A DNA stretch of 7,605 nt from a virus. Lineage: Duplodnaviria > Heunggongvirae > Uroviricota > Caudoviricetes. A model generated the notes under the pieces. It did not search any database, was not told where the DNA came from, and saw nothing but the letters and a program-made list of their open reading frames with translations. Shown here piece by piece: positions 535 through 7,605 of this stretch. The DNA lies in the IMG/VR virus record IMGVR_UViG_2693429676_000010, positions 1 to 7,605 of that record. The stretch is one strand, 5' to 3'. The first letter of the stretch is position 1. Each line of letters opens with the position of its first letter. A program made the translations under genes and the position numbers.

Positions 535-954
535 TTATTCCGGTGGGGGATTATCTTTAATCCTGCCTCTCAAATATTTTTCTACATACTCATCGATTTC
601 TTTTAGCCGGACTTCAAATAGCTCAATCATTCGTTGTTGTTCTGAGCCCGGTAGCTGGTTAAACAACTCAAGAAGTTTTCGTTGGGATTCATTTAACCAC
701 AATTCAGAAGATTCCTGTTCTCCAAAGAGGAGCTCAGGAGGAGATATGCCAAGTGCCTTTCCCAATACGACAGCGTCATGTACTCCAACATTTCTGCTGC
801 CCGCCTCATAGTTACCTATACGCGATTGCGTCCATCCGCAGATTTCAGCAAGTTTTCCTTGAGATAAACCAAGCTTCTGCCTGCGCTCTTTAAGACGCAT
901 TGCAATTTTGTCATTGAGCCTACTAGCGGCAATTTTTTCGTTTTCTTTTTCCAT
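535..954 (-). CDS. prophage repressor, HTH XRE family (cI/RacR-type), 139 aa, no S24 peptidase domain
   Basis: ORF 535..954 minus. Helix-turn-helix signature LGLSQGKLAEICGWTQSRIGNYEAG in the N-terminal half; short helical C-terminal region; AAGGA RBS upstream on the minus strand; divergent from a Cro-like gene; followed by a terminator. Confidence 0.85.
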   Translation of the reverse strand: MEKENEKIAASRLNDKIAMRLKERRQKLGLSQGKLAEICGWTQSRIGNYEAGSRNVGVHDAVVLGKALGISPPELLFGEQESSELWLNESQRKLLELFNQLPGSEQQRMIELFEVRLKEIDEYVEKYLRGRIKDNPPPE

Positions 955-1050: not shown

Positions 1051-1293
1051 ATGAACAAAATTTCAACATATCGAAAACAGCTTGGGCTGTCTCAAAGACA
1101 ACTTGCTGTTCAGTTAGGGTGGATACAAAGCCGACTGGCAAATTACGAAGCAAATTTTCGTACCCCTGGACTAGAGGAGTGCAGAAAAATTGTTTCTACC
1201 CTTAATCGGCTTGGCGCTCATTGTGGACTTGACGATGTATTCCCCCCAGACGGTAAGCATAGCGAAAACAGCATAGGAGCGGTTGATTCATGA
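1051..1293 (+). CDS. Cro-like HTH (XRE) transcriptional regulator, 80 aa
   Basis: ORF 1051..1293 plus. GGAGG RBS 6 nt upstream of the ATG; HTH signature LGLSQRQLAVQLGWIQSRLANYE; divergent from the repressor; its stop overlaps the next start (ATGA at 1290-1293). Confidence 0.8.
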   Translation: MNKISTYRKQLGLSQRQLAVQLGWIQSRLANYEANFRTPGLEECRKIVSTLNRLGAHCGLDDVFPPDGKHSENSIGAVDS

Positions 1294-1559
1294 AAATCAG
1301 GCATGAGCACATCGAATCAGTGTTGTTAGCCCTGGCAGCCGAAAAAGGGCAGGCGTGGGTCGCTAACGCAATTACTGAAGAATATCTGCGCCAGGGGGGC
1401 GGCGAATTGCCCCTTGTACCAGGCAAGGACTGGAACAATCAGCAGAATATCTATCACCGTTGGTTGAAAGGTGAAACGAAAGCGCAAAGGGAAAAAATTC
1501 AGAAACTGATCCCTGCGGTTCTGGCAATTCTTCCGCGNCGCTTGGCTCAGTGCGAATAA
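1290..1559 (+). CDS. ydaT: CII-like regulator (YdaT-type), copy 1, truncated: genuine homology ends at the N at 1538 and the last 7 codons are junction-derived
   Basis: The N-terminal 82 aa are near-identical to the 1994..2415 copy. From recall, resembles Rac prophage YdaT. The sequence after the N at 1538 is antisense of a RacR-like gene, so the stop at 1557-1559 is not the native one. Confidence 0.6.
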   Translation: MKIRHEHIESVLLALAAEKGQAWVANAITEEYLRQGGGELPLVPGKDWNNQQNIYHRWLKGETKAQREKIQKLIPAVLAILPXRLAQCE

Positions 1560-1706
1560 TCTTTTCCCCGCCGGCTGTGTTTCATCTCTTTCCCATTGAG
1601 AAATTGTTACGTGAGCCACTTTGACCAGCTTACCTAATGCGGCCTGAGACAGTTTTAATTTTTTACGCCTATGTAAGAGGCGAGCACCGAAGGTTTCGTT
1701 TTTCAT
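1539..1706 (-). pseudogene. racR: RacR-like HTH repressor, 5' fragment only (first ~56 codons), truncated at the N at 1538
   Basis: The minus ORF starts at ATG 1706 and reads MKNETFGARLLHRRKKLKLSQAALGKLVKVAHVTISQWERDETQ (HTH). Past the N it continues only as antisense of ydaT copy 1. Divergent from the ydaS-like gene, as in Rac. Symbol by recalled synteny. Confidence 0.55.
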
Positions 1707-1782: not shown

Positions 1783-2010
1783 ATGTTGAAAATTGATGCT
1801 ATAGCGTTTTTTGGCAGCAAAACAAAGCTTGCCAATGCCGCAGGAGTTAGGCTGGCAAGCATTGCTGCATGGGGGGAACTGGTTCCTGAAGGTCGCGCGA
1901 TGCGCCTGCAAGAGGCATCTGGCGGGGAACTTCAGTACGACCCCAAAGTTTATGACGAATATCGTAAGGCAAAACGACCTTGGAAGGTGATTCATGAAAA
2001 TCAGGCATGA
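1783..2010 (+). CDS. ydaS: YdaS-like Cro-type regulator, 75 aa
   Basis: ORF 1783..2010 plus. Strong RBS TAAGGAG 6 nt upstream; divergent from the racR-like gene; its 3' end overlaps the ydaT copy-2 start by 17 nt. Symbol from recalled Rac gene order. Confidence 0.75.
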   Translation: MLKIDAIAFFGSKTKLANAAGVRLASIAAWGELVPEGRAMRLQEASGGELQYDPKVYDEYRKAKRPWKVIHENQA

Positions 2011-2415
2011 GCACATCGAATCAGTGCTGTTGCCCTGGCAGCCGAAAAAGGGCAGGCGTGGGTCGCTAACGCAATTACTGAAGAATATCTGCGCCAGGGG
2101 GGCGGCGAATTGCCCCTTGTACCAGGCAAGGACTGGAACAATCAGCAGAATATCTATCACCGTTGGTTGAAAGGTGAAACGAAAGCGCAAAGGGAAAAAA
2201 TTCAGAAACTGATCCCTGCGGTTCTGGCAATTCTTCCGCGCGAGCTGCGTCACCGACTCTGCATCTTCGATACCCTGGAACGCCGTGCATTACTGGCGGC
2301 GCAGGAAGCGTTGAGTACGGCAATTGATGCGCATGATGATGCAGTCCAGGCCGTTTACCGGAAAGCGCATTTCAGCGGCGGCGGGTCTTCCGACGATTCT
2401 GTCATTGTTCATTAA
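1994..2415 (+). pseudogene. ydaT: CII-like regulator (YdaT-type), copy 2, about 140 codons, interrupted by a 1-nt deletion near codon 14
   Basis: Near-identical to copy 1, but GTTAGCC in copy 1 is GTTGCC here (around 2030), shifting frame from the ATG at 1994 into a stop at about 2168-2170. The ORF track recovers the remainder as 2110..2415 in another frame. Confidence 0.6.
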
Positions 2416-2478
2416 GCAAAAGTTTCCATGCTGTTTGTGCTTATTCTAAGCAACCGGGCAGCATCATACGGGGCAATT

Positions 2479-3627
2479 ATGGCCGCATTACCATACATGC
2501 AACTGTACATAGCTGATTACCTGGCTGACACCATGCATTTGTCAGCAGAGGAGCACGGCGCGTATTTGTTGCTGATGTTCAATTACTGGCAAACAGGAAA
2601 GCCAATACCCAAAAACAGGTTGGCAAAAATTGCCCGTCTGACTAACGAGCGATGGGTTGATGTTGAACCATCCTTGCGGGAGTTTTTTTGTGATAACGGC
2701 GACGAATGGATGCATCTTCGGATTGAGGAAGATCTGGCATCTGTCAGAGAAAAATTAACCAAAAAATCAGCCGCAGGAAAAGCATCTGTTCAGGCCAGAA
2801 GAAGCAGAAAGGAAGCAGATGTTCAAACAAAACAAGAGAGAAATTTAACAGGTGTTCAAACAGATGTTGGAGTGATGTTCGAACATGATGCCAACACAAA
2901 GGCAACTAATAAAGATACAGATAAAGATCTAAAAACAGATCTAACCCATCCCAAACCCTTCCCTTCCGGAAGGGAGTTTCGGGATTTTGTGGCTGGAGTG
3001 CTTGAGGGGAGATTATCTGGCGGTACTGCAGCGGAATTTTGTAATTCTGCGGTGGTTGCGTTGCAGGCTGCTGGCCTGGATGTCTGTCGTGAGTATCCGG
3101 TGCCAGAGCGTGGTGACGGTTGCGGAGGGCGGATTGATATCGTCGTGACTGACAGGAACGGTGTCCGGTGTGGGAGCGAGCTTGACCGAAATTCTCCGCG
3201 ACAGAAATCACTGCTCAAAATCGGTGCTGTTGAAACCGGGATATGTGTCTTGCGGCGCAGTGATATCGCAAGGCACACCGAGCAGGGAATTCTGGTTATC
3301 GGTGGGGCTGTTCGCCAGAAAAAATTTGACCCGTTGTCAGTTGATCTGCCCGACTGGTTGCCAGAAACACTCTGGCATGAGTGGGTCCAGTTCAGGCAGG
3401 CATTGCGAAAACCGATTCGAACGGAGCAGGGCGCTAACGGGGCGATACGGGAACTGGAAAAATTCCGTCAGCAGGGTTTTACACCTGAGCAGGTGATTCG
3501 ACACAGCATCGCCAATGAATACCAGGGCCTGTTCGCGCCGAAAGGTGTTCGGCCTGAGACGTTGCTCCGACAGGTTAACACCGTCTCGTTGCCGGACAGT
3601 GCGATCCCGCCAGGCTTCAGGGGGTAA
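2479..3627 (+). CDS. replication initiator / replisome organiser, N-terminal DUF1376 (YdaU-like), 382 aa from ATG 2479 (the ORF extends to 2428)
   Basis: ORF 2428..3627 plus. The conserved DUF1376-like N-terminus PYMQLYIADYLADTMHLSAEEHGAY sits 5 residues after the ATG at 2479, so I prefer that start. Low-complexity linker encoded by repeats; C-terminal domain conserved in the other copies; stop overlaps the SD of the DnaC-like gene. Confidence 0.8.
   Translation: MAALPYMQLYIADYLADTMHLSAEEHGAYLLLMFNYWQTGKPIPKNRLAKIARLTNERWVDVEPSLREFFCDNGDEWMHLRIEEDLASVREKLTKKSAAGKASVQARRSRKEADVQTKQERNLTGVQTDVGVMFEHDANTKATNKDTDKDLKTDLTHPKPFPSGREFRDFVAGVLEGRLSGGTAAEFCNSAVVALQAAGLDVCREYPVPERGDGCGGRIDIVVTDRNGVRCGSELDRNSPRQKSLLKIGAVETGICVLRRSDIARHTEQGILVIGGAVRQKKFDPLSVDLPDWLPETLWHEWVQFRQALRKPIRTEQGANGAIRELEKFRQQGFTPEQVIRHSIANEYQGLFAPKGVRPETLLRQVNTVSLPDSAIPPGFRG
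2787..2946. other. candidate phage origin of replication embedded in the initiator gene (iteron-like repeats plus AT-rich tract)
   Basis: TGTTCA at 2787-2792; TGTTCAAACA at 2820-2829 and 2853-2862; palindromic TGTTCGAACA at 2876-2885 (spacings 33, 33, 23 bp). Followed by a roughly 75% AT tract at 2906-2945 with two AGATCT/GATC sites (2925-2930, 2937-2942). Analogous to lambda ori inside gene O. Confidence 0.45.
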
Positions 3628-3633
3628 CAGACC

Positions 3634-4380
3634 ATGAAAAATATTGCGACAGGAGGCGTTCTGGAGCGTATCCGCAGACTGACCCCACCACATGTAACCG
3701 CCCCATTCAGAACGGTTGCGGAGTGGCGCGAGTGGCAACTTGCTGAAGGCCAGAAACGTTGCGAGGAGATCAACCGCCTGAATCGTCAGTTGCGGGTGGA
3801 AAAAATCCTGAACCGCTCCGGCATCCAGCCGTTGCACCGGAAGTGTTCGTTTGCGAATTACCGGGCGCAGAACGACGGTCAGCGACATGCACTGAGTCAG
3901 GCGAAATCCATAGCTGACGAACTGATGACAGGCTGTACGAATTTTGTGTTCAGCGGTAAGCCCGGCACCGGAAAAAATCATCTTGCAGACGCGATTGGCA
4001 ACCGGCTGATGGCGAAGGGGCGTAGCGTGATTATCGTCACCGTGTCCGATGTCATGAGCGTGTTGCATGAGAGCTACGACAACGGCAAATCCGGTGAAAA
4101 ATTTTTACAGGAGCTTTGTGGTGTTGACCTGCTGGTCCTGGATGAAATTGGCATGCAGCGGGATACGAAAAACGAGCAGGTGGTACTGAACCAGATTGTT
4201 GATCGCCGGACGGCATCGTTACGCGGTGTGGGGATGCTGACAAATATTAACCATGCAGCGATGAATACACTTCTCGGCGAGCGGGTGATGGATCGCATGG
4301 TCATGAACGGCGGGCGCTGGGTGAATTTTAACTGGGAGAGCTGGCGTCCGAATGTTAGCCATTCGAGGGTTGTTAAGTAG
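3634..4380 (+). CDS. ydaV: DnaC-like helicase loader (AAA+ ATPase, YdaV-type), copy A, 248 aa
   Basis: Walker A GKPGTGKN at 3955-3978, as in E. coli DnaC; Walker B DLLVLDEIG; C-terminal LGERVMDRM motif; GGGG SD overlapping the upstream stop, suggesting translational coupling. Symbol by recalled Rac synteny. Confidence 0.9.
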   Translation: MKNIATGGVLERIRRLTPPHVTAPFRTVAEWREWQLAEGQKRCEEINRLNRQLRVEKILNRSGIQPLHRKCSFANYRAQNDGQRHALSQAKSIADELMTGCTNFVFSGKPGTGKNHLADAIGNRLMAKGRSVIIVTVSDVMSVLHESYDNGKSGEKFLQELCGVDLLVLDEIGMQRDTKNEQVVLNQIVDRRTASLRGVGMLTNINHAAMNTLLGERVMDRMVMNGGRWVNFNWESWRPNVSHSRVVK

Positions 4381-4394
4381 TTTCAGGAGGATTT

Positions 4395-4620
4395 ATGGCG
4401 AAACCTTTTACTCCCGAACAGCGGGAAGAACTGAAGACGCGAATTGTGGAACTCGTGCATCAGGACGGTCGGGTCACGATTCGGCAGTTGTCAGATGAAA
4501 CAGGTATCAGTCGTGCGTCTGTCGGTCGCTTATGCATAGAACTGGTCGCAAGTGGTGATGTATATAATTCTGGCTACGGGGTATTTCCCTCTGAACAGGC
4601 TCGCAAGGACTGGCAAAGCG
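4395..4620 (+). CDS. small putative DNA-binding protein (HTH-like, YdaW-like), 5' portion; interrupted by the N-run at 4621
   Basis: AGGAGG RBS 6 nt upstream of ATG 4395; HTH-like stretch VTIRQLSDETGISRASVGRLCIELVASGDV. The ORF-track continuation through the Ns into (RG)n is an artefact of reading through the gap. Confidence 0.6.
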
Positions 4621-4637
4621 NNNNNNNNNNNNNNNNN
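4621..4637. other. run of 17 N (assembly gap or masked bases)
   Basis: Directly visible. Flanking sequences are not contiguous in homology. Confidence 0.95.
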
Positions 4638-4638
4638 A

Positions 4639-4680
4639 GAGGAAGAGGAAGAGGAAGAGGAAGAGGAAGAGGAAGAGGAA
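4639..4680. repeat. hexanucleotide microsatellite (GAGGAA)x7 immediately after the N-run
   Basis: Seven perfect tandem GAGGAA units at 4639-4680. Not in frame with any credible gene. Confidence 0.9.
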
Positions 4681-4694
4681 GATCTAAATACTGA

Positions 4695-5030
4695 TCTCCC
4701 CCTCGCCAAAAACGAGCGTCTAAAAAATTCGAGCCGGAGGCTATTGAGCTGCCCGATTGGTTGCCGGAAACACTCTGGCATGAGTGGGTCCGGTTCAGAC
4801 AGGCATTGCGAAAACCGATTCGAACGGAGCAGGGCGCTAACGGGGCGATACGGGAACTGGAAAAATTCCGTCAGCAGGGTTTTACACCTGAGCAGGTGAT
4901 TCGACACAGCATCGCCAATGAATACCAGGGCCTGTTCGCGCCGAAAGGTGTTCGGCCTGAGACGTTGCTCCGACAGGTTAACACCGTCTCGTTGCCGGAC
5001 AGTGCGATCCCGCCAGGCTTCAGGGGGTAA
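4695..5030 (+). CDS. 3' fragment of a second, diverged initiator gene (C-terminal domain only), copy B
   Basis: In-frame stop at 4692-4694, then 111 codons. From LPDWLPETLWHEW onward it matches the copy-A C-terminus almost exactly (one Q-to-R change); upstream of about 4745 the sequence is unrelated to copy A. No upstream initiator body is present in the window. Confidence 0.5.
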   Translation, partial: SPPRQKRASKKFEPEAIELPDWLPETLWHEWVRFRQALRKPIRTEQGANGAIRELEKFRQQGFTPEQVIRHSIANEYQGLFAPKGVRPETLLRQVNTVSLPDSAIPPGFRG

Positions 5031-5036
5031 CGGACC

Positions 5037-5783
5037 ATGAAAAATATTGCGACAGGCGGCGTTCTGGAACGCATCCGCCGACTGACCCCGCCACATGTAA
5101 CCGCCCCATTCAGAACGGTAGCGGAGTGGCGCGAGTGGCAACTTGCTGAAGGCCAGAAACGTAGCGAGGAGATCAACCGCCTGAATCGCCAGTTGCGGGT
5201 GGAAAAAATTCTGAATCGCTCAGGCATCCAGCCGTTGCACCGTAAATGCTCGTTTGCGAATTACCAGGTGCAGAACGACGGCCAGCGATACGCGTTAAGC
5301 CAGGCGAAATCCATCGCCGATGAACTGATGACCGGGTGTACAAATTTTGCGTTCAGCGGAAAACTTGGTACCGGGAAGAATCACTTAGCGGCAGCTATCG
5401 GGAATCGCCTGCTGAAAGACGGTCAGACAGTGATTGTGGTTACCGTGGCTGATGTTATGAGCGCCCTGCACGCCAGCTATGACGACGGGCAGTCAGGCGA
5501 AAAATTTTTGCGGGAGCTGTGCGAAGTGGATCTGCTGGTTCTTGATGAAATTGGCATTCAGCGCGAGACGAAAAACGAGCAGGTGGTGCTGCACCAGATT
5601 GTTGATCGCCGGACAGCGTCGATGCGCAGCGTGGGGATGCTGACAAACCTGAACTATGAGGTGATGAAAACATTGCTCGGCGAGCGGGTGATGGATCGCA
5701 TGGTCATGAACGGCGGGCGCTGGGTGAATTTTAACTGGGAGAGCTGGCGTCCGAATGTTAGCCATTCGAGGGTTGTTAAGTAG
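5037..5783 (+). CDS. DnaC-like helicase loader, copy B (diverged paralog/allele), 248 aa
   Basis: Same length and architecture as copy A. About 30 of 248 residues differ by manual alignment; the nucleotide differences I checked in the first 66 nt are all synonymous. Walker A reads GKLGTGKN (P to L). Confidence 0.85.
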   Translation: MKNIATGGVLERIRRLTPPHVTAPFRTVAEWREWQLAEGQKRSEEINRLNRQLRVEKILNRSGIQPLHRKCSFANYQVQNDGQRYALSQAKSIADELMTGCTNFAFSGKLGTGKNHLAAAIGNRLLKDGQTVIVVTVADVMSALHASYDDGQSGEKFLRELCEVDLLVLDEIGIQRETKNEQVVLHQIVDRRTASMRSVGMLTNLNYEVMKTLLGERVMDRMVMNGGRWVNFNWESWRPNVSHSRVVK

Positions 5784-5797
5784 TTTCAGGAGGATTT

Positions 5798-5995
5798 ATG
5801 GCGAAACCTTTTACTCCCGAACAGCGGGAAGAACTGAAGACGCGAATTGTGGAACTCGTGCATCAGGACGGTCGGGTCACGATTCGGCAGTTGTCAGATG
5901 AAACAGGTATCAGTCGTGCGTCTGTCGGTCGCTTATGCATAGAACTGGTCGCAAGTGGTGATGTATATAATTCTGGCTACGGGGTATTTCCCTCT
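5798..5995 (+). CDS. YdaW-like small HTH gene, 5' portion, truncated at the N at 5996
   Basis: Identical to the start of the 4395 copy, with the same AGGAGG RBS; homology ends at the N. Confidence 0.55.
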
Positions 5996-5996
5996 N

Positions 5997-6095
5997 CTGT
6001 TCGCGCCGAAAGGTGTTCGGCCTGAGACGTTGCTCCGACAGGTTAACACCGTCTCGTTGCCGGACAGTGCGATCCCGCCAGGCTTCAGGGGGTAA
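5997..6095 (+). CDS. 3' tail (last ~32 codons) of the initiator gene, copy C, beginning at the N junction
   Basis: Matches 3529-3627 of copy A, ending in the same TAA and SD context. Confidence 0.45.
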   Translation: MFAPKGVRPETLLRQVNTVSLPDSAIPPGFRG

Positions 6096-6101
6096 CAGAC
6101 C

Positions 6102-6848
6102 ATGAAAAATATTGCGACAGGAGGCGTTCTGGAGCGTATCCGCAGACTGACCCCACCACATGTAACCGCCCCATTCAGAACGGTTGCGGAGTGGCGCGAG
6201 TGGCAACTTGCTGAAGGCCAGAAACGTTGCGAGGAGATCAACCGCCTGAATCGTCAGTTGCGGGTGGAAAAAATCCTGAACCGCTCCGGCATCCAGCCGT
6301 TGCACCGGAAGTGTTCGTTTGCGAATTACCGGGCGCAGAACGACGGTCAGCGACATGCACTGAGTCAGGCGAAATCCATAGCTGACGAACTGATGACAGG
6401 CTGTACGAATTTTGTGTTCAGCGGTAAGCCCGGCACCGGAAAAAATCATCTTGCAGACGCGATTGGCAACCGGCTGATGGCGAAGGGGCGTAGCGTGATT
6501 ATCGTCACCGTGTCCGATGTCATGAGCGTGTTGCATGAGAGCTACGACAACGGCAAATCCGGTGAAAAATTTTTACAGGAGCTTTGTGGTGTTGACCTGC
6601 TGGTCCTGGATGAAATTGGCATGCAGCGGGATACGAAAAACGAGCAGGTGGTACTGAACCAGATTGTTGATCGCCGGACGGCATCGTTACGCGGTGTGGG
6701 GATGCTGACAAATATTAACCATGCAGCGATGAATACACTTCTCGGCGAGCGGGTGATGGATCGCATGGTCATGAACGGCGGGCGCTGGGTGAATTTTAAC
6801 TGGGAGAGCTGGCGTCCGAATGTTAGCCATTCGAGGGTTGTTAAGTAG
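6102..6848 (+). CDS. ydaV: DnaC-like helicase loader, copy C (protein identical to copy A)
   Basis: The ORF-track translation is identical to 3634..4380; the whole unit is offset by 2468 bp from copy A. Confidence 0.85.
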   Translation: MKNIATGGVLERIRRLTPPHVTAPFRTVAEWREWQLAEGQKRCEEINRLNRQLRVEKILNRSGIQPLHRKCSFANYRAQNDGQRHALSQAKSIADELMTGCTNFVFSGKPGTGKNHLADAIGNRLMAKGRSVIIVTVSDVMSVLHESYDNGKSGEKFLQELCGVDLLVLDEIGMQRDTKNEQVVLNQIVDRRTASLRGVGMLTNINHAAMNTLLGERVMDRMVMNGGRWVNFNWESWRPNVSHSRVVK

Positions 6849-6862
6849 TTTCAGGAGGATTT

Positions 6863-7231
6863 ATGGCGAAACCTTTTACTCCCGAACAGCGGGAAGAACT
6901 GAAGACGCGAATTGTGGAACTCGTGCATCAGGACGGTCGGGTCACGATTCGGCAGTTGTCAGATGAAACAGGTATCAGTCGTGCGTCTGTCGGTCGCTTA
7001 TGCATAGAACTGGTCGCAAGTGGTGATGTATATAATTCTGGCTACGGCTTATTCCCGTCTGAACAGGCTCGCAAGGACTGGCAAAGCGCCCGCAAAAAAC
7101 TCTCGAGAGTAAAGGTGAGGAAACCGGTTGTTGTTGATCCGGACCTTATCTGGTCATTACCTGACGGAGAAATACGCCGCTACGACAGGCGCCTGAATAT
7201 AATCTGTCGCGAGTGCCGGAAGAGCGAAGCT
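6863..7231 (+). CDS. YdaW-like small HTH gene, longest copy (123 codons before the N at 7232; native 3' end not determinable)
   Basis: Same start and RBS as the other copies, with a GVFP to GLFP variant near 7045. The continuation past the N is junction-derived. Confidence 0.6.
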
Positions 7232-7233
7232 NT

Positions 7234-7605
7234 ATGGCGAAACCTTTTACTCCCGAACAGCGGGAAGAACTGAAGACGCGAATTGTGGAACTCGTGCATC
7301 AGGACGGTCGGGTCACGATTCGGCAGTTGTCAGATGAAACAGGTATCAGTCGTGCGTCTGTCGGTCGCTTATGCATGGAACTGGTCGCAAGTGGTGATGT
7401 ATATAATTCTGGCTACGGGGTATTTCCCTCTGAACAGGCTCATAAAGACTGGCAAAACGCCCGCAAAAAGCTATCGAGGGTAAAGGTGAAGAAACCGGTT
7501 GTGGTTGATCCTGACCTTATCTGGTCATTACCAGACGGAGAAATACGCCGCTACGACAGGCGCCTGAATATAATCTGTCGCGAGTGCCGGAAGAGCGAAG
7601 CTATG
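7234..7605 (+). CDS. YdaW-like small HTH gene, further variant copy starting right after the N; open to the window end
   Basis: ATG at 7234-7236, no stop through 7605. Several substitutions relative to the 6863 copy (for example I to M at 7378, R to H and S to N around 7441-7456). Preceded by coding sequence, not by the usual RBS, so the placement is likely an assembly join. Confidence 0.45.
   Translation, partial: MAKPFTPEQREELKTRIVELVHQDGRVTIRQLSDETGISRASVGRLCMELVASGDVYNSGYGVFPSEQAHKDWQNARKKLSRVKVKKPVVVDPDLIWSLPDGEIRRYDRRLNIICRECRKSEAM

Follow-up and report, generated by a model that had tools for sequence, protein, structure and literature searches.

Two copies of a gene for a DnaC-like helicase loader follow one another in the window, the whole stretch of 7,605 nt of viral DNA analysed here, and an almost identical initiator C-terminus precedes each of them. 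A preliminary description read the copies as neighbouring paralogs under purifying selection, each paired with an initiator end, and took the tail common to the initiators as the domain that contacts the loader. The locus raises two questions: whether the loaders form a genuine tandem pair, and what the tail might do. Taken as a whole, the window is very probably explained by a scaffolding artefact, lambdoid mosaicism, decay of the copy-B module, and a common phage initiator tail module whose terminal peptide is also the C-terminus of the bacterial restart protein DnaT. The biology is that of ordinary, already catalogued prophages: both loader alleles and both initiator types have exact or near-exact matches among catalogued Shigella and E. 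coli prophage genes, and the finding as originally posed matters little.

Layout of the window

The window is almost certainly a draft-assembly scaffold whose organism is Shigella sonnei. We infer that two related cryptic prophages of the Rac-like (lambdoid) kind offered an assembler alternative paths through their replication modules, and that it strung these together with N between them. The prophages, P1 and P2, are represented by the loci L012 and L002, respectively, both taken from the complete S. sonnei chromosome CP061367.1. Each module runs in the order repressor, cro, ydaT, initiator, ydaV, and DUF977. Outside the initiators and the first two loader genes, which are listed further below, the window is made up as follows:

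1–1537: scaffold piece 1, P1 immunity region, 100% identical to L012 5071–6607 (CP061367.1, ~3.04 Mb)
535–954, minus strand: P1 repressor (Pfam labels from matching genes)
1051–1293, plus strand: P1 Cro-like gene (Pfam labels from matching genes)
From 1290: start of P1 ydaT
1538: single-N scaffold joint; the preceding 254 nt recur at 1988–2240
1539–2031: P2 immunity region, giving way to P1 sequence within the shared ydaT
1539–1706, minus strand: 5' part of the P2 repressor gene
1783–2010, plus strand: P2 P22_Cro-like gene
1994–2415, plus strand: ydaT, as two overlapping ORFs of 58 aa and 101 aa
4395–4620, plus strand: 5' part of a DUF977 gene, truncated by the 17-N gap
4621–4637: 17-N scaffold gap, inside or adjoining a microsatellite
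5798–5995, plus strand: 5' part of DUF977, second occurrence
5996: single-N scaffold joint
5997–7231, plus strand: scaffold piece 4, P1 up to ~7000 and P2 afterwards by block-wise identities
5997–6095, plus strand: tail fragment in scaffold piece 4
6102–6848, plus strand: duplicate of ydaV A, base-for-base identical to 3634–4380
From 6863, plus strand: DUF977 of scaffold piece 4
7232: single-N scaffold joint
7233–7605, plus strand: DUF977 again, P1 version, 100% identical to L012 8761–9133

Several observations bear on this layout. First, repeated sequence flanks each of the N joints (1538, 4621–4637, 5996, and 7232), and the DUF977 stretch 4395–4592 is identical to 5798–5995. Second, nearly every 100-nt block away from the joints is 100% identical to L012 or L002 in a block-wise comparison; the blocks at 1601–1901 match L002 at 100% and have no counterpart in L012, and from 2101 on the identity is 100% to L012. 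Third, the path switches between P1 and P2 only at N joints or in sequence common to both prophages. The residual mismatches against CP061367.1 amount to six mismatches and one gap in 1988–4617 and four in 4644–5995; most lie at P1/P2 path switches, and some could be strain differences. The ydaT gene at 1994–2415 matches PF06254 YdaT_toxin (E=8e-12) and displays a 1-nt register shift between two repeat families; because it reads as two overlapping ORFs, it is frameshifted or hybrid in the window.

CP061367.1 carries copy A at about 3.046 Mb and copy B at about 4.149 Mb, each once per 16.7-kb locus, and the two prophages are separated by 1.1 Mb. An E. coli locus with the B-type module (L001) likewise carries a single ydaV. 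Judged by these sequence matches, copies A and B are alleles of one phage gene, the DnaC-like loader gene ydaV, and not tandem paralogs; the neighbouring paralogs of the preliminary description give way to alleles from two distant prophages, and their tandem layout to a product of scaffolding. A genuine tandem amplification, in which unequal recombination between prophages left three ydaV genes (A, B, and A) separated by incomplete initiator and DUF977 genes, is extremely improbable. The window as given does read in this way, with start-to-start spacings of 1403 and 1065 nt, and some E. coli genomes contain up to four matching places (places counted, whatever their positions). However, the supposed units meet only at N joints, and no gap-free linkage of the copies was found; the blocks are exact matches to two prophages far apart on a single complete chromosome; A occurs once per 16.7-kb locus in six complete S. 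sonnei chromosomes; and the duplicate at 6102–6848 is identical to A down to the base. The artefact is worth flagging, as such scaffolds could mislead a reader into inferring three loaders or a tandem duplication.

The two loader alleles

With the layout read as a scaffold, the loaders can be compared as alleles of one gene:

3634–4380, plus strand: ydaV allele A, DnaC-like AAA+ helicase loader with Walker A GKPGTGKN (NF009043; PF01695 IstB_IS21)
5037–5783, plus strand: ydaV allele B, L110 in Walker A (codon 5364–5366, C>T at 5365; NF009043)

Both proteins belong to the YdaV family NF009043 (YdaV/PRK12377), scoring 503.8 (A) and 507.1 (B) bits against a cutoff of 389 bits with positions 1–248 of 248 covered, and both contain the IstB/DnaC-type AAA+ ATPase domain PF01695 (66.1 and 67.9 bits; cutoff 24.1). 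They align over their full length with E. coli DnaC (PDB 6QEL; residues 2–242 versus 2–241, E=2e-73), with which they share the sequence around Walker A, FSGKPGTGKNHLAAAI, and in it the Lys that corresponds to K112. The DnaC equivalog NF005931, with a cutoff of 357 bits, gives only 305.4 bits for A and 302.7 bits for B, and the two YdaV proteins are best described as close relatives of DnaC, not DnaC itself. The ydaV genes further differ from dnaC in being prophage-borne, and allele B has Leu where DnaC has P108. The exact YdaV A protein occurs on ~420 contigs, named S. sonnei. A literature search on the function of YdaU and YdaV, including the biochemistry of YdaV, returned nothing specific.

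The alleles, both 747 nt long, align without gaps and differ at 109 of 747 nt and at exactly 30 of 248 residues, in line with the rough count of 30 given earlier. The codon differences comprise 58 synonymous and 30 non-synonymous changes, for a Nei–Gojobori dN/dS of 0.115 (dS 0.605, dN 0.069), far from the value near 1 that would have spoken against purifying selection. The five differences previously reported in the first 66 nt are found at positions 21, 33, 36, 43, and 54, and they are all silent, because the first amino acid difference is at residue 43. Divergence is concentrated at nt 200–650 of the gene and reaches dS=1.07 in the loader core (codons 61–215), with zero differences in the last 33 loader codons and the following 198 nt. 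The distribution has the form of ordinary lambdoid mosaicism: the AAA+ core carries old, constrained divergence, and the identical flanks, including the initiator tail, go back to recent recombination. Purifying selection can thus be upheld as a long-term property of the loader family, but not as a sign of present-day function in both copies, since the B module looks broken in S. sonnei.

The initiators and their common tail

The genes upstream of the loaders contain the following features:

2428–3627, plus strand: initiator A, 399 aa, with DUF1376 (aa 22–104), linker, insert, and C-terminal tail
2818–2887, plus strand: candidate origin iterons, GRTGTTCRAACA three times plus one overlapping minus-strand copy, in the linker-coding part of initiator A
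2992–3306, plus strand: insert of initiator A, ~105 aa (aa 189–293), phrog_1347
3316–3624, plus strand: C-terminal tail of initiator A (aa 297–399)
4638–4682, plus strand: (GAGGAA)n microsatellite (TRF period 6, 7.5 copies, 100% matches)
4722–5030, plus strand: tail B, with ~75 aa predicted to form a helical domain and a DnaT-type motif at the C-terminus
4971–5027, plus strand: DnaT-type motif of tail B, RQVNTVSLPDSAIPPGFRG

Initiator A is a member of the DUF1376 family (PF07120, 87.6 bits against a cutoff of 30.1), matches phrog_6451 (E=2e-116), and has its gene called at the same length, 399 aa, in complete S. sonnei genomes; its insert has no Pfam or PDB sequence match. The type-B initiator has a different N-terminus, of the phrog_2509 type, and is not counted as a DUF1376/YdaU member because its complete form in L001 has no Pfam match. 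The lambda O family, Phage_rep_O (PF04492), matches neither initiator A nor the type-B initiator. The microsatellite encodes the poly-Glu linker of the type-B initiator, whose full gene is present in L001 and L002 and whose N-terminal two thirds are missing from the window.

The iteron GRTGTTCRAACA has four matches where 0.21 are expected, and none of 200 shuffles reached four. Considering the position of ori-lambda inside gene O, we infer that these repeats may be an origin. By analogy with the lambda O-P and DnaA-DnaC pairs, we propose that the variable N-terminal domain of the initiator would bind the origin inside its own gene. In the same analogical sense, the common C-terminal module, with a proposed docking peptide at its end, would assist in delivering host DnaB to the opened DNA while YdaV or host DnaC holds the helicase.

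Over 89 codons, the tails (4761–5030 versus 3358–3627) differ by 3 nt and one amino acid, and the near-invariance noted earlier is real. It does not, however, speak for a special constraint: synonymous sites are equally invariant (dS=0.03 in the tail versus 1.07 in the loader core), and the identical block also extends over the final 33 codons of the loader and 198 nt beyond it, so that the near-invariance marks a recent recombination block. The sequence 5' of the tail, described as unrelated between the copies, is so in part. Similarity does end ~40 nt further upstream, and the N-termini differ (DUF1376 versus phrog_2509), but a 17-N gap lies ~85 nt upstream of the start of tail similarity, and the unrelated 5' sequence of B is for this reason partly a gap artefact.

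Retention of the tail across otherwise different initiators is borne out on a wider scale. An exhaustive representative search yielded a tail family of 2666 related clusters, and the N-termini among 126 tail-family representatives are HTH_36 (29), DUF1376 (24), Phage_rep_O (12), or unannotated; the tail-bearing proteins of Gifsy-2 and mEpX1 have the Phage_rep_O domain. A protein homologue search with the tail gave 23 candidates, mostly fragments, and a related-locus search with a single tail gave 80 near-identical type-B loci. The AF2 model of tail A (pLDDT 82) displays three main helices, and the predicted helical domain of ~75 aa is common in phage O-like initiators.

A terminal peptide in common with DnaT

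The tail carries the DnaT motif, RDVNxVSxPDxxIPxGFRG, at its very C-terminus. Against DnaT residues 160–179, the terminal motif scores 19.4 bits as an hmmsearch domain, and the profile-profile comparison gives E=5e-5 with 83% identity over 18 columns; the residues of the peptide do not vary across 105 DnaT sequences. E. coli DnaT (primosomal protein 1; PDB 2RU8, 6AEP, and 9ZBT) has in common with the tail the C-terminal peptide R-D-V-N-x-V/I-S-x-P-D-x-x-I-P-x-G-F-R-G and also the gene order, in which a peptide-ending protein is followed by a DnaC-type loader: dnaT lies directly upstream of dnaC in one operon (PMC13377028). DnaT is no origin-binding initiator. Initiator C-terminal domains of at least four kinds, unrelated to one another, terminate in this peptide, and a full DnaT-like C-terminal domain is found in some phage initiators (five loci).

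Homology of the whole tail to DnaT was the first reading after the PDB match, and it weakened on testing. In a pairwise phmmer comparison, tail residues 10–102 align to DnaT 92–179 (E=2e-5), and the collinear PDWxP and ALRxPxTxE motifs in tail and DnaT are only suggestive. The tail-family profile matches neither DnaT nor any PDB chain, and its peptide-bearing subset matches only DnaT 160–179. Once the last 20 aa are removed, hhalign against DnaT gives E=0.15–0.44 (0.44 in the profile-profile comparison), and Foldseek of the tail model (pLDDT 82) against the PDB gives no match. The DnaT equivalog NF002770, with a cutoff of 201 bits, is matched at 15.5–17.6 bits over model positions 161–179 only, and neither the helical nor the N-terminal domain has significant similarity to DnaT. 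Because whole-tail homology weakened in the profile, profile-profile, and Foldseek tests, only the terminal motif is claimed as DnaT-like: by these alignments, the last 18–20 residues are the one part of the tail that matches DnaT significantly.

The 18–20-aa terminal peptide appears to be a more plausible docking element than the helical domain. By extension, RxVNxVSxPDxxIPxGFRG might be a portable docking peptide, common to DnaT and phage initiators, that engages the DnaB-DnaC(-like) complex or PriA, an idea we put forward as speculative and rather unlikely. The sharper hypothesis would place the conserved element in the peptide shared with DnaT, not in the whole 90-aa tail, and a docking peptide, if true, would offer a concrete handle on how DnaT recruits DnaB/DnaC. 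How the primosome contacts DnaB/DnaC is stated to be still unknown (PMC13377028, PMC11087952). The latest cryo-EM proposal assigns recruitment of DnaB/DnaC to the DnaT N-terminal domain, not the C-terminus (PMC13377028), which counts against the docking-peptide part of our explanation.

Possible roles of the tail

The C-terminal domain of lambda O binds lambda P, as textbooks record, and the ~90-aa tail may similarly be a domain that specifically binds the DnaC-like loader and hence travels with ydaV across initiators; we regard this reading, close to the original one, as possible but doubtful. A DnaC-like gene lies immediately downstream in 14 of 14 IMG/VR loci with this tail type and the motif, and the tail and the loader N-terminus fall in one recombination block. 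In eight diverse phages, the gene downstream of the tail is IstB/DnaC-like in five, lambda-P-like in one, and neither in two, so the neighbourhood of the tail does not single out DnaC-like loaders. The helical domain is also found beside a lambda-P-type loader in phiES15 and with no adjacent loader in phiE125, and Klebsiella ST11-OXA245phi3.2 has the DnaT-type motif without an adjacent DnaC-like gene. Adjacency is moreover the default for initiator and loader genes and is therefore no proof of contact. Among motif-bearing loci, a DnaC-like gene follows in 41 of 79, a bare count from which no association is claimed.

Alternatively, the tail might act like the DnaT C-terminal domain, coating ssDNA at the opened origin and/or docking on host PriA, and so enlist the host restart machinery with no direct loader contact. 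This can be entertained only tentatively. On ssDNA, the C-terminal domain of DnaT assembles into a filament, and it also docks on PriA (PMC13377028); removal of DnaT 154–179 lowers both the affinity and the cooperativity of ssDNA binding (PMC4132743). The terminal 18–20 aa common to tail and DnaT are consistent with such a role, as are the five loci in which phage initiators have a full DnaT-like C-terminal domain. The helical part, in contrast, does not significantly resemble the three-helix, ssDNA-binding bundle of DnaT, residues 84–153 (hhalign E=0.44); neither Foldseek nor the family profile matches a PDB chain; and, in our reading of the pairwise alignment, the tail positions opposite F124, Y127, W128, K143, and R146, the ssDNA-contact residues of DnaT, are mostly not conserved.

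P110L and probable decay of the copy-B module

Within our preferred explanation, the tail is one part of a mosaic module, and copy B of that module carries further changes, among them one in the loader and one in the initiator:

4696–4697, plus strand: 10 nt (TCCCCCTAAA) deleted at this site, by alignment with E. coli relatives in which the gene is intact

Allele A has a canonical Walker A (G-x-P-G-x-G-K). In allele B, GKLGTGKN (Leu codon CTT) stands in place of GKPGTGKN (Pro codon CCC in A), as first noted; the Gly and Lys residues are kept, and the change of Pro to Leu departs from the canonical form. Position L110 is equivalent to P108 in E. coli DnaC. Allele B is one nucleotide away from an E. 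coli allele with Pro. The exact L-variant of YdaV B is found on ~140 contigs, named mainly S. sonnei, and the Pro form on at least 1000 contigs; from this distribution, P110L seems specific to the S. sonnei lineage, and it may be harmless.

The 10-nt deletion puts tail B out of frame with the rest of initiator B, and the earlier view that each copy has its own initiator end fails for copy B. The complete S. sonnei chromosome has this deletion as well (L002), and no gene is called there between cro and ydaV. The P2 prophage also has a frameshifted ydaT and many IS elements, and the copy-B module in S. sonnei looks to be decaying or dead.

It could be argued that the P110L loader is instead a selected variant, such as a toxin or regulator that has impaired ATPase activity and acts by sequestering DnaB. 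All of the ~140 contigs, named mainly S. sonnei, have the variant fixed in a reading frame that is otherwise intact, and it affects a P-loop position that is Pro in YdaV-A, E. coli DnaC, and IS5376 IstB. Yet it is a single C>T change in an allele otherwise identical, the adjoining replication genes of the prophage are broken, and a clonal lineage can fix a variant without selection. S. sonnei is rich in IS elements and pseudogenes, and IS genes are visible in the loci studied here. Selection of P110L is, on balance, improbable.

Comparison with known replication modules

Rac: The module ydaS-ydaT-ydaU-ydaV-ydaW of E. coli K-12 and its relatives has the same order and families as the modules described here, namely YdaT_toxin, the DUF1376 protein YdaU, the DnaC-like YdaV (NF009043), and DUF977. 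With ydaU of 'Escherichia phage Rac' the tail has 93% identity, and the PGAP labels of the E. coli homologues are ydaV and 'YdaU family'. Initiator A differs by its ~105-aa insert, which is absent from the 285-aa YdaU-type proteins, and module B differs by a Pfam-less N-terminal domain (phrog_2509) with a poly-Glu linker.

Lambda O/P: The lambda system is alike in its two-domain initiator, its variable linker, the likely origin inside the initiator gene, and a loader gene immediately downstream, and the N-terminal domain of O, Phage_rep_O, is the one present in 12 of 126 tail-family representatives. The lambda O C-terminus was considered as a relative of the tail and set aside: the tail profile does not match lambda O itself, whose C-terminus has been assigned to a different family, Phg_2220_C (Brezellec et al., PMC5509034). 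Lambda P is unrelated to DnaC-type AAA+ loaders.

DopC/DopE: In Cellvibrionales and Oceanospirillales, Brezellec et al. 2017 (PMC5509034) report an O-like protein that combines an HTH_36 N-terminus with a 'DnaT Cter motif' (HHpred >95% to 2RU8). The likeness extends to gene arrangement, in that the O-like protein is encoded beside a helicase loader (PMC5509034). There, however, the protein has a lambda-P-like partner and both belong to a domesticated chromosomal pair, whereas the partner here is DnaC-like and prophage-borne.

Loader copies and gene content

The window (7605 nt) contains three DnaC-like open reading frames, listed here with the segments discussed below.

Features of the window
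2818-2887: GRTGTTCRAACA repeats, three direct copies and one overlapping minus-strand copy
2909-2928: (ATAAAG)3 run
3568-3624 and 4971-5027: DnaT-type terminal motif
3634-4380: DnaC-like reading frame, copy A, 747 nt
5037-5783: DnaC-like reading frame, copy B, 747 nt
6102-6848: DnaC-like reading frame, third copy, 747 nt, every base as in copy A

The gap-free alignment of copies A and B shows 109 nucleotide differences over 747 positions and 30 residue differences over 248, the differing codons comprising 58 synonymous and 30 non-synonymous cases. Within the first 66 nt there are five changes, none of which alters the protein. The counts in the preliminary description were thus accurate. Its P-loop substitution is likewise read directly, GKLGTGKN (CTT codon) in copy B and GKPGTGKN in copy A. 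The leucine stands where E. coli DnaC has P108; G110 follows two residues later, and the Walker lysine K112 four residues later. Nei-Gojobori estimates are 0.605 for dS and 0.069 for dN (dN/dS 0.115).

The genes of the window are already catalogued. Both loaders pass the NCBI curated YdaV-type model NF009043 (504 and 507 bits, cutoff 389); with the DnaC equivalog model they reach 305 and 303 bits, short of its 357-bit cutoff. They match Pfam IstB_IS21, and their alignment with E. coli DnaC spans the full length (E=2e-73). The N-terminal domain of initiator A is DUF1376. In E. coli, the full-length relative of initiator B is a 262-aa protein without a Pfam domain. This relative is a member of phrog_2509 and has a poly-Glu linker followed by the same tail as in A. 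With the neighbouring repressor, cro, ydaT, and DUF977, the genes are arranged as in the replication region of the Rac prophage.

Two prophages in one scaffold

The exact copy A and copy B proteins are both present in public collections, under the name Shigella sonnei. The finished chromosome CP061367.1 encodes both on opposite strands, copy A at ~3.046 Mb and copy B at ~4.149 Mb, each occurring once per 16.7-kb locus in different IS-riddled lambdoid prophages (P1 and P2, respectively). The window was split into 100-nt blocks, each of which was compared with the two loci, and nearly all blocks away from the N joints are 100% identical to one or the other.

Source of window sequence and non-ACGT sites
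1-1537: P1
1538: 1 N
1539 to ~2031: P2
~2032-4620: P1
4621-4637: 17 N
4638 to ~5900: P2
5996: 1 N
5997 to ~7000: P1
~7001-7231: P2
7232: 1 N
7233-7605: P1

Each N site is flanked by long direct repeats. Because the blocks match two separate prophages, and the switches fall at an N or within sequence common to both, there are two loader genes and not three in a row. The layout is a scaffolding artefact in which alternative paths of a repeat tangle were chained together, and the diverged paralog first proposed is an allele residing in another prophage, not a tandem copy. In E. coli, an intact relative of module B carries a single initiator and a single ydaV.

A public draft contig (CXCR01000135.1, 4400-7700) strings together an IstB fragment, DUF1627, ydaV, a 62-aa DUF977 piece, and a 138-aa DUF977, probably the same sort of artefact in another assembly. 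A (GAGGAA)n microsatellite at window 4638-4682 encodes the poly-Glu linker of the type-B initiator and varies in copy number, with three units in E. coli (locus L001, ~6008-6025), six in finished S. sonnei (the P2 locus, L002, ~7608-7645), and at least 7.5 in the window, where it adjoins the 17-N gap; assembly evidently failed at this repeat.

Allelic mosaicism and decay of module B

The tail is indeed nearly invariant between the copies, as first described: 3 nt and one residue separate the 89-codon reading frame upstream of copy B (4761-5030) from the final part of the 399-aa initiator A. Nucleotide changes between the two loader copies are unevenly distributed, clustering at nt 200-650 of the gene.

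Synonymous divergence (dS) between A and B
Tail: 0.03
Loader codons 1-60: 0.24
Loader codons 61-215: 1.07
Last 33 loader codons and next 198 nt: 0, no differences

A block without synonymous change is young rather than unusually constrained, so the invariance of the tail (0.03, against 1.07 in codons 61-215) reflects recombination and not constraint. Such a pattern is typical of lambdoid phage mosaicism, with an old allelic core between recently exchanged flanks. The dN/dS of 0.10 in the loader core shows that purifying selection has acted over the long term in the phage gene pool and is no proof that copy B functions here. Purifying selection, first proposed for both copies, holds for the loader family over the long term (0.115) and is not supported as present-day function of module B, which is decaying in this lineage.

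Relative to the E. coli gene, the window and the finished S. sonnei chromosome alike lack 10 nt (TCCCCCTAAA) immediately after the poly-Glu linker, which puts tail B out of frame with the initiator N-terminal domain; in CP061367.1, the interval from cro to ydaV of module B has no called gene. A further sign of decay in prophage 2 is ydaT, split into two overlapping reading frames of 58 and 101 aa (window 1994-2415; L002 6696-7117) and intact in P1 (140 aa; locus L012, 6360-6782). The copy B gene equals the E. coli allele except for a C>T change giving P110L. The Leu form occurs in ~140 contigs, mostly named S. sonnei, and the Pro form in at least 1000 contigs across Enterobacteriaceae. The simplest reading of these sequences is that P110L and its broken neighbours represent neutral decay of a dead module.

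An apparently portable DnaT-type terminal peptide

The 102-aa tail, used as query in an exhaustive HMMER search (E<=1e-3, clustering at 50% identity), matched 2666 clusters. Among 126 of the best representatives, the N-termini include HTH_36 (29), DUF1376 (24), and Phage_rep_O (12), the remainder being assorted other DNA-binding domains or unannotated; retention of the tail across different initiators, noted at first for this pair, is therefore general. The AlphaFold2 model (112-aa query, 44-sequence alignment, pLDDT 82) has three main helices at residues 26-38, 46-61, and 66-75, followed by a less confident C-terminal extension.

That extension ends in RxVNxVSxPDxxIPxGFRG, which is also the C-terminus of DnaT. 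Searched alone against the PDB, the tail matched the DnaT C-terminal domain (2RU8, E=2e-5; 9ZBT, residues 92-179), and profile-profile comparison with DnaT gave E=5e-5, with 83% identity over the last 18 columns. Homology of the entire tail to DnaT was considered and is not supported: without those columns the comparison falls to E=0.44, a profile built from the peptide-bearing subset matches DnaT at 160-179 (19.4 bits) and nowhere else, the tail family profile matched no PDB chain, and Foldseek found no match for the tail model. Since the signal lies in the last 18-20 residues, we claim a shared terminal motif and not a shared domain. The peptide is present in just 12 of 147 tail representatives. 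Its residues R161, D162, S167, D170, I173, P174, G176, F177, R178, and G179 do not vary among 105 enterobacterial DnaT sequences. A 'DnaT Cter motif' had already been reported in the O-like DopC, neighbour of a lambda-P-like loader (Brezellec et al. 2017, PMC5509034).

Scanning viral contigs for a DNA pattern of the motif yielded 79 analysable loci.

Domain preceding the motif (79 loci)
'FEQVWxxYP' type: 28
Lambda-O-C-terminus-like: 27
Helical tail of this window: 14
Truly DnaT-CTD-like: 5
Other: 2
Fragments: 3

The motif terminates phage initiator-like proteins (loci L105-L184) with at least four unrelated kinds of preceding C-terminal domain. A DnaC-like gene lies immediately downstream in 41 of the 79 loci, including all 14 of the window's tail type. 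With this distribution, the peptide behaves as a portable element; it looks like a portable short linear motif, the sole lead of broader interest here.

The preliminary description had suggested that the tail is the loader-interaction domain. In a set of eight diverse phages that carry the helical domain, the initiator is followed by an IstB/DnaC-like gene in five (Gifsy-2, mEpX1, Klebsiella phage 6 LV-2017, Morganella IME1369_01, and Hafnia Pocitis76), by a lambda-P-like gene in one (phiES15), and by a gene of neither loader type in two (phiE125 and Klebsiella ST11-OXA245phi3.2), the last of which carries the DnaT-type motif. A phage-encoded DnaC-like loader beside the motif is frequent but not required. 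In DnaT, the C-terminal domain forms a filament on ssDNA and docks on PriA, and the authors of the structure proposed that DnaB/DnaC is recruited by the N-terminal domain (PMC13377028). Truncation of DnaT residues 154-179 lowers the affinity and cooperativity of ssDNA binding (PMC4132743).

Candidate origin and other features of initiator A

The GRTGTTCRAACA repeats lie in the linker-coding part of initiator A, with the (ATAAAG)3 run downstream. Four matches were observed against 0.21 expected by chance, and none of 200 shuffles reached four. We call these repeats candidate origin iterons because their position corresponds to that of ori-lambda inside gene O.

Initiator A also carries an insert of ~105 aa (window 2992-3306; phrog_1347) between linker and tail, without a Pfam match or a PDB sequence match; the insert is absent from Rac-type YdaU proteins of 285 aa (e.g., at locus L107). 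T5orf172/MUG113 or HNH domains occur in other members of the tail family, in P0050 as an insert in the corresponding region, and the site may be one where nuclease-like domains are preferentially inserted. Initiator A is damaged in some finished S. sonnei chromosomes: at L008 (6244-7462) it is interrupted by an IS (238 aa, then transposase), at L011 it is shortened to 382 aa, and at L013 no initiator A gene is called. The replication module of prophage 1 is also eroding in parts of S. sonnei.
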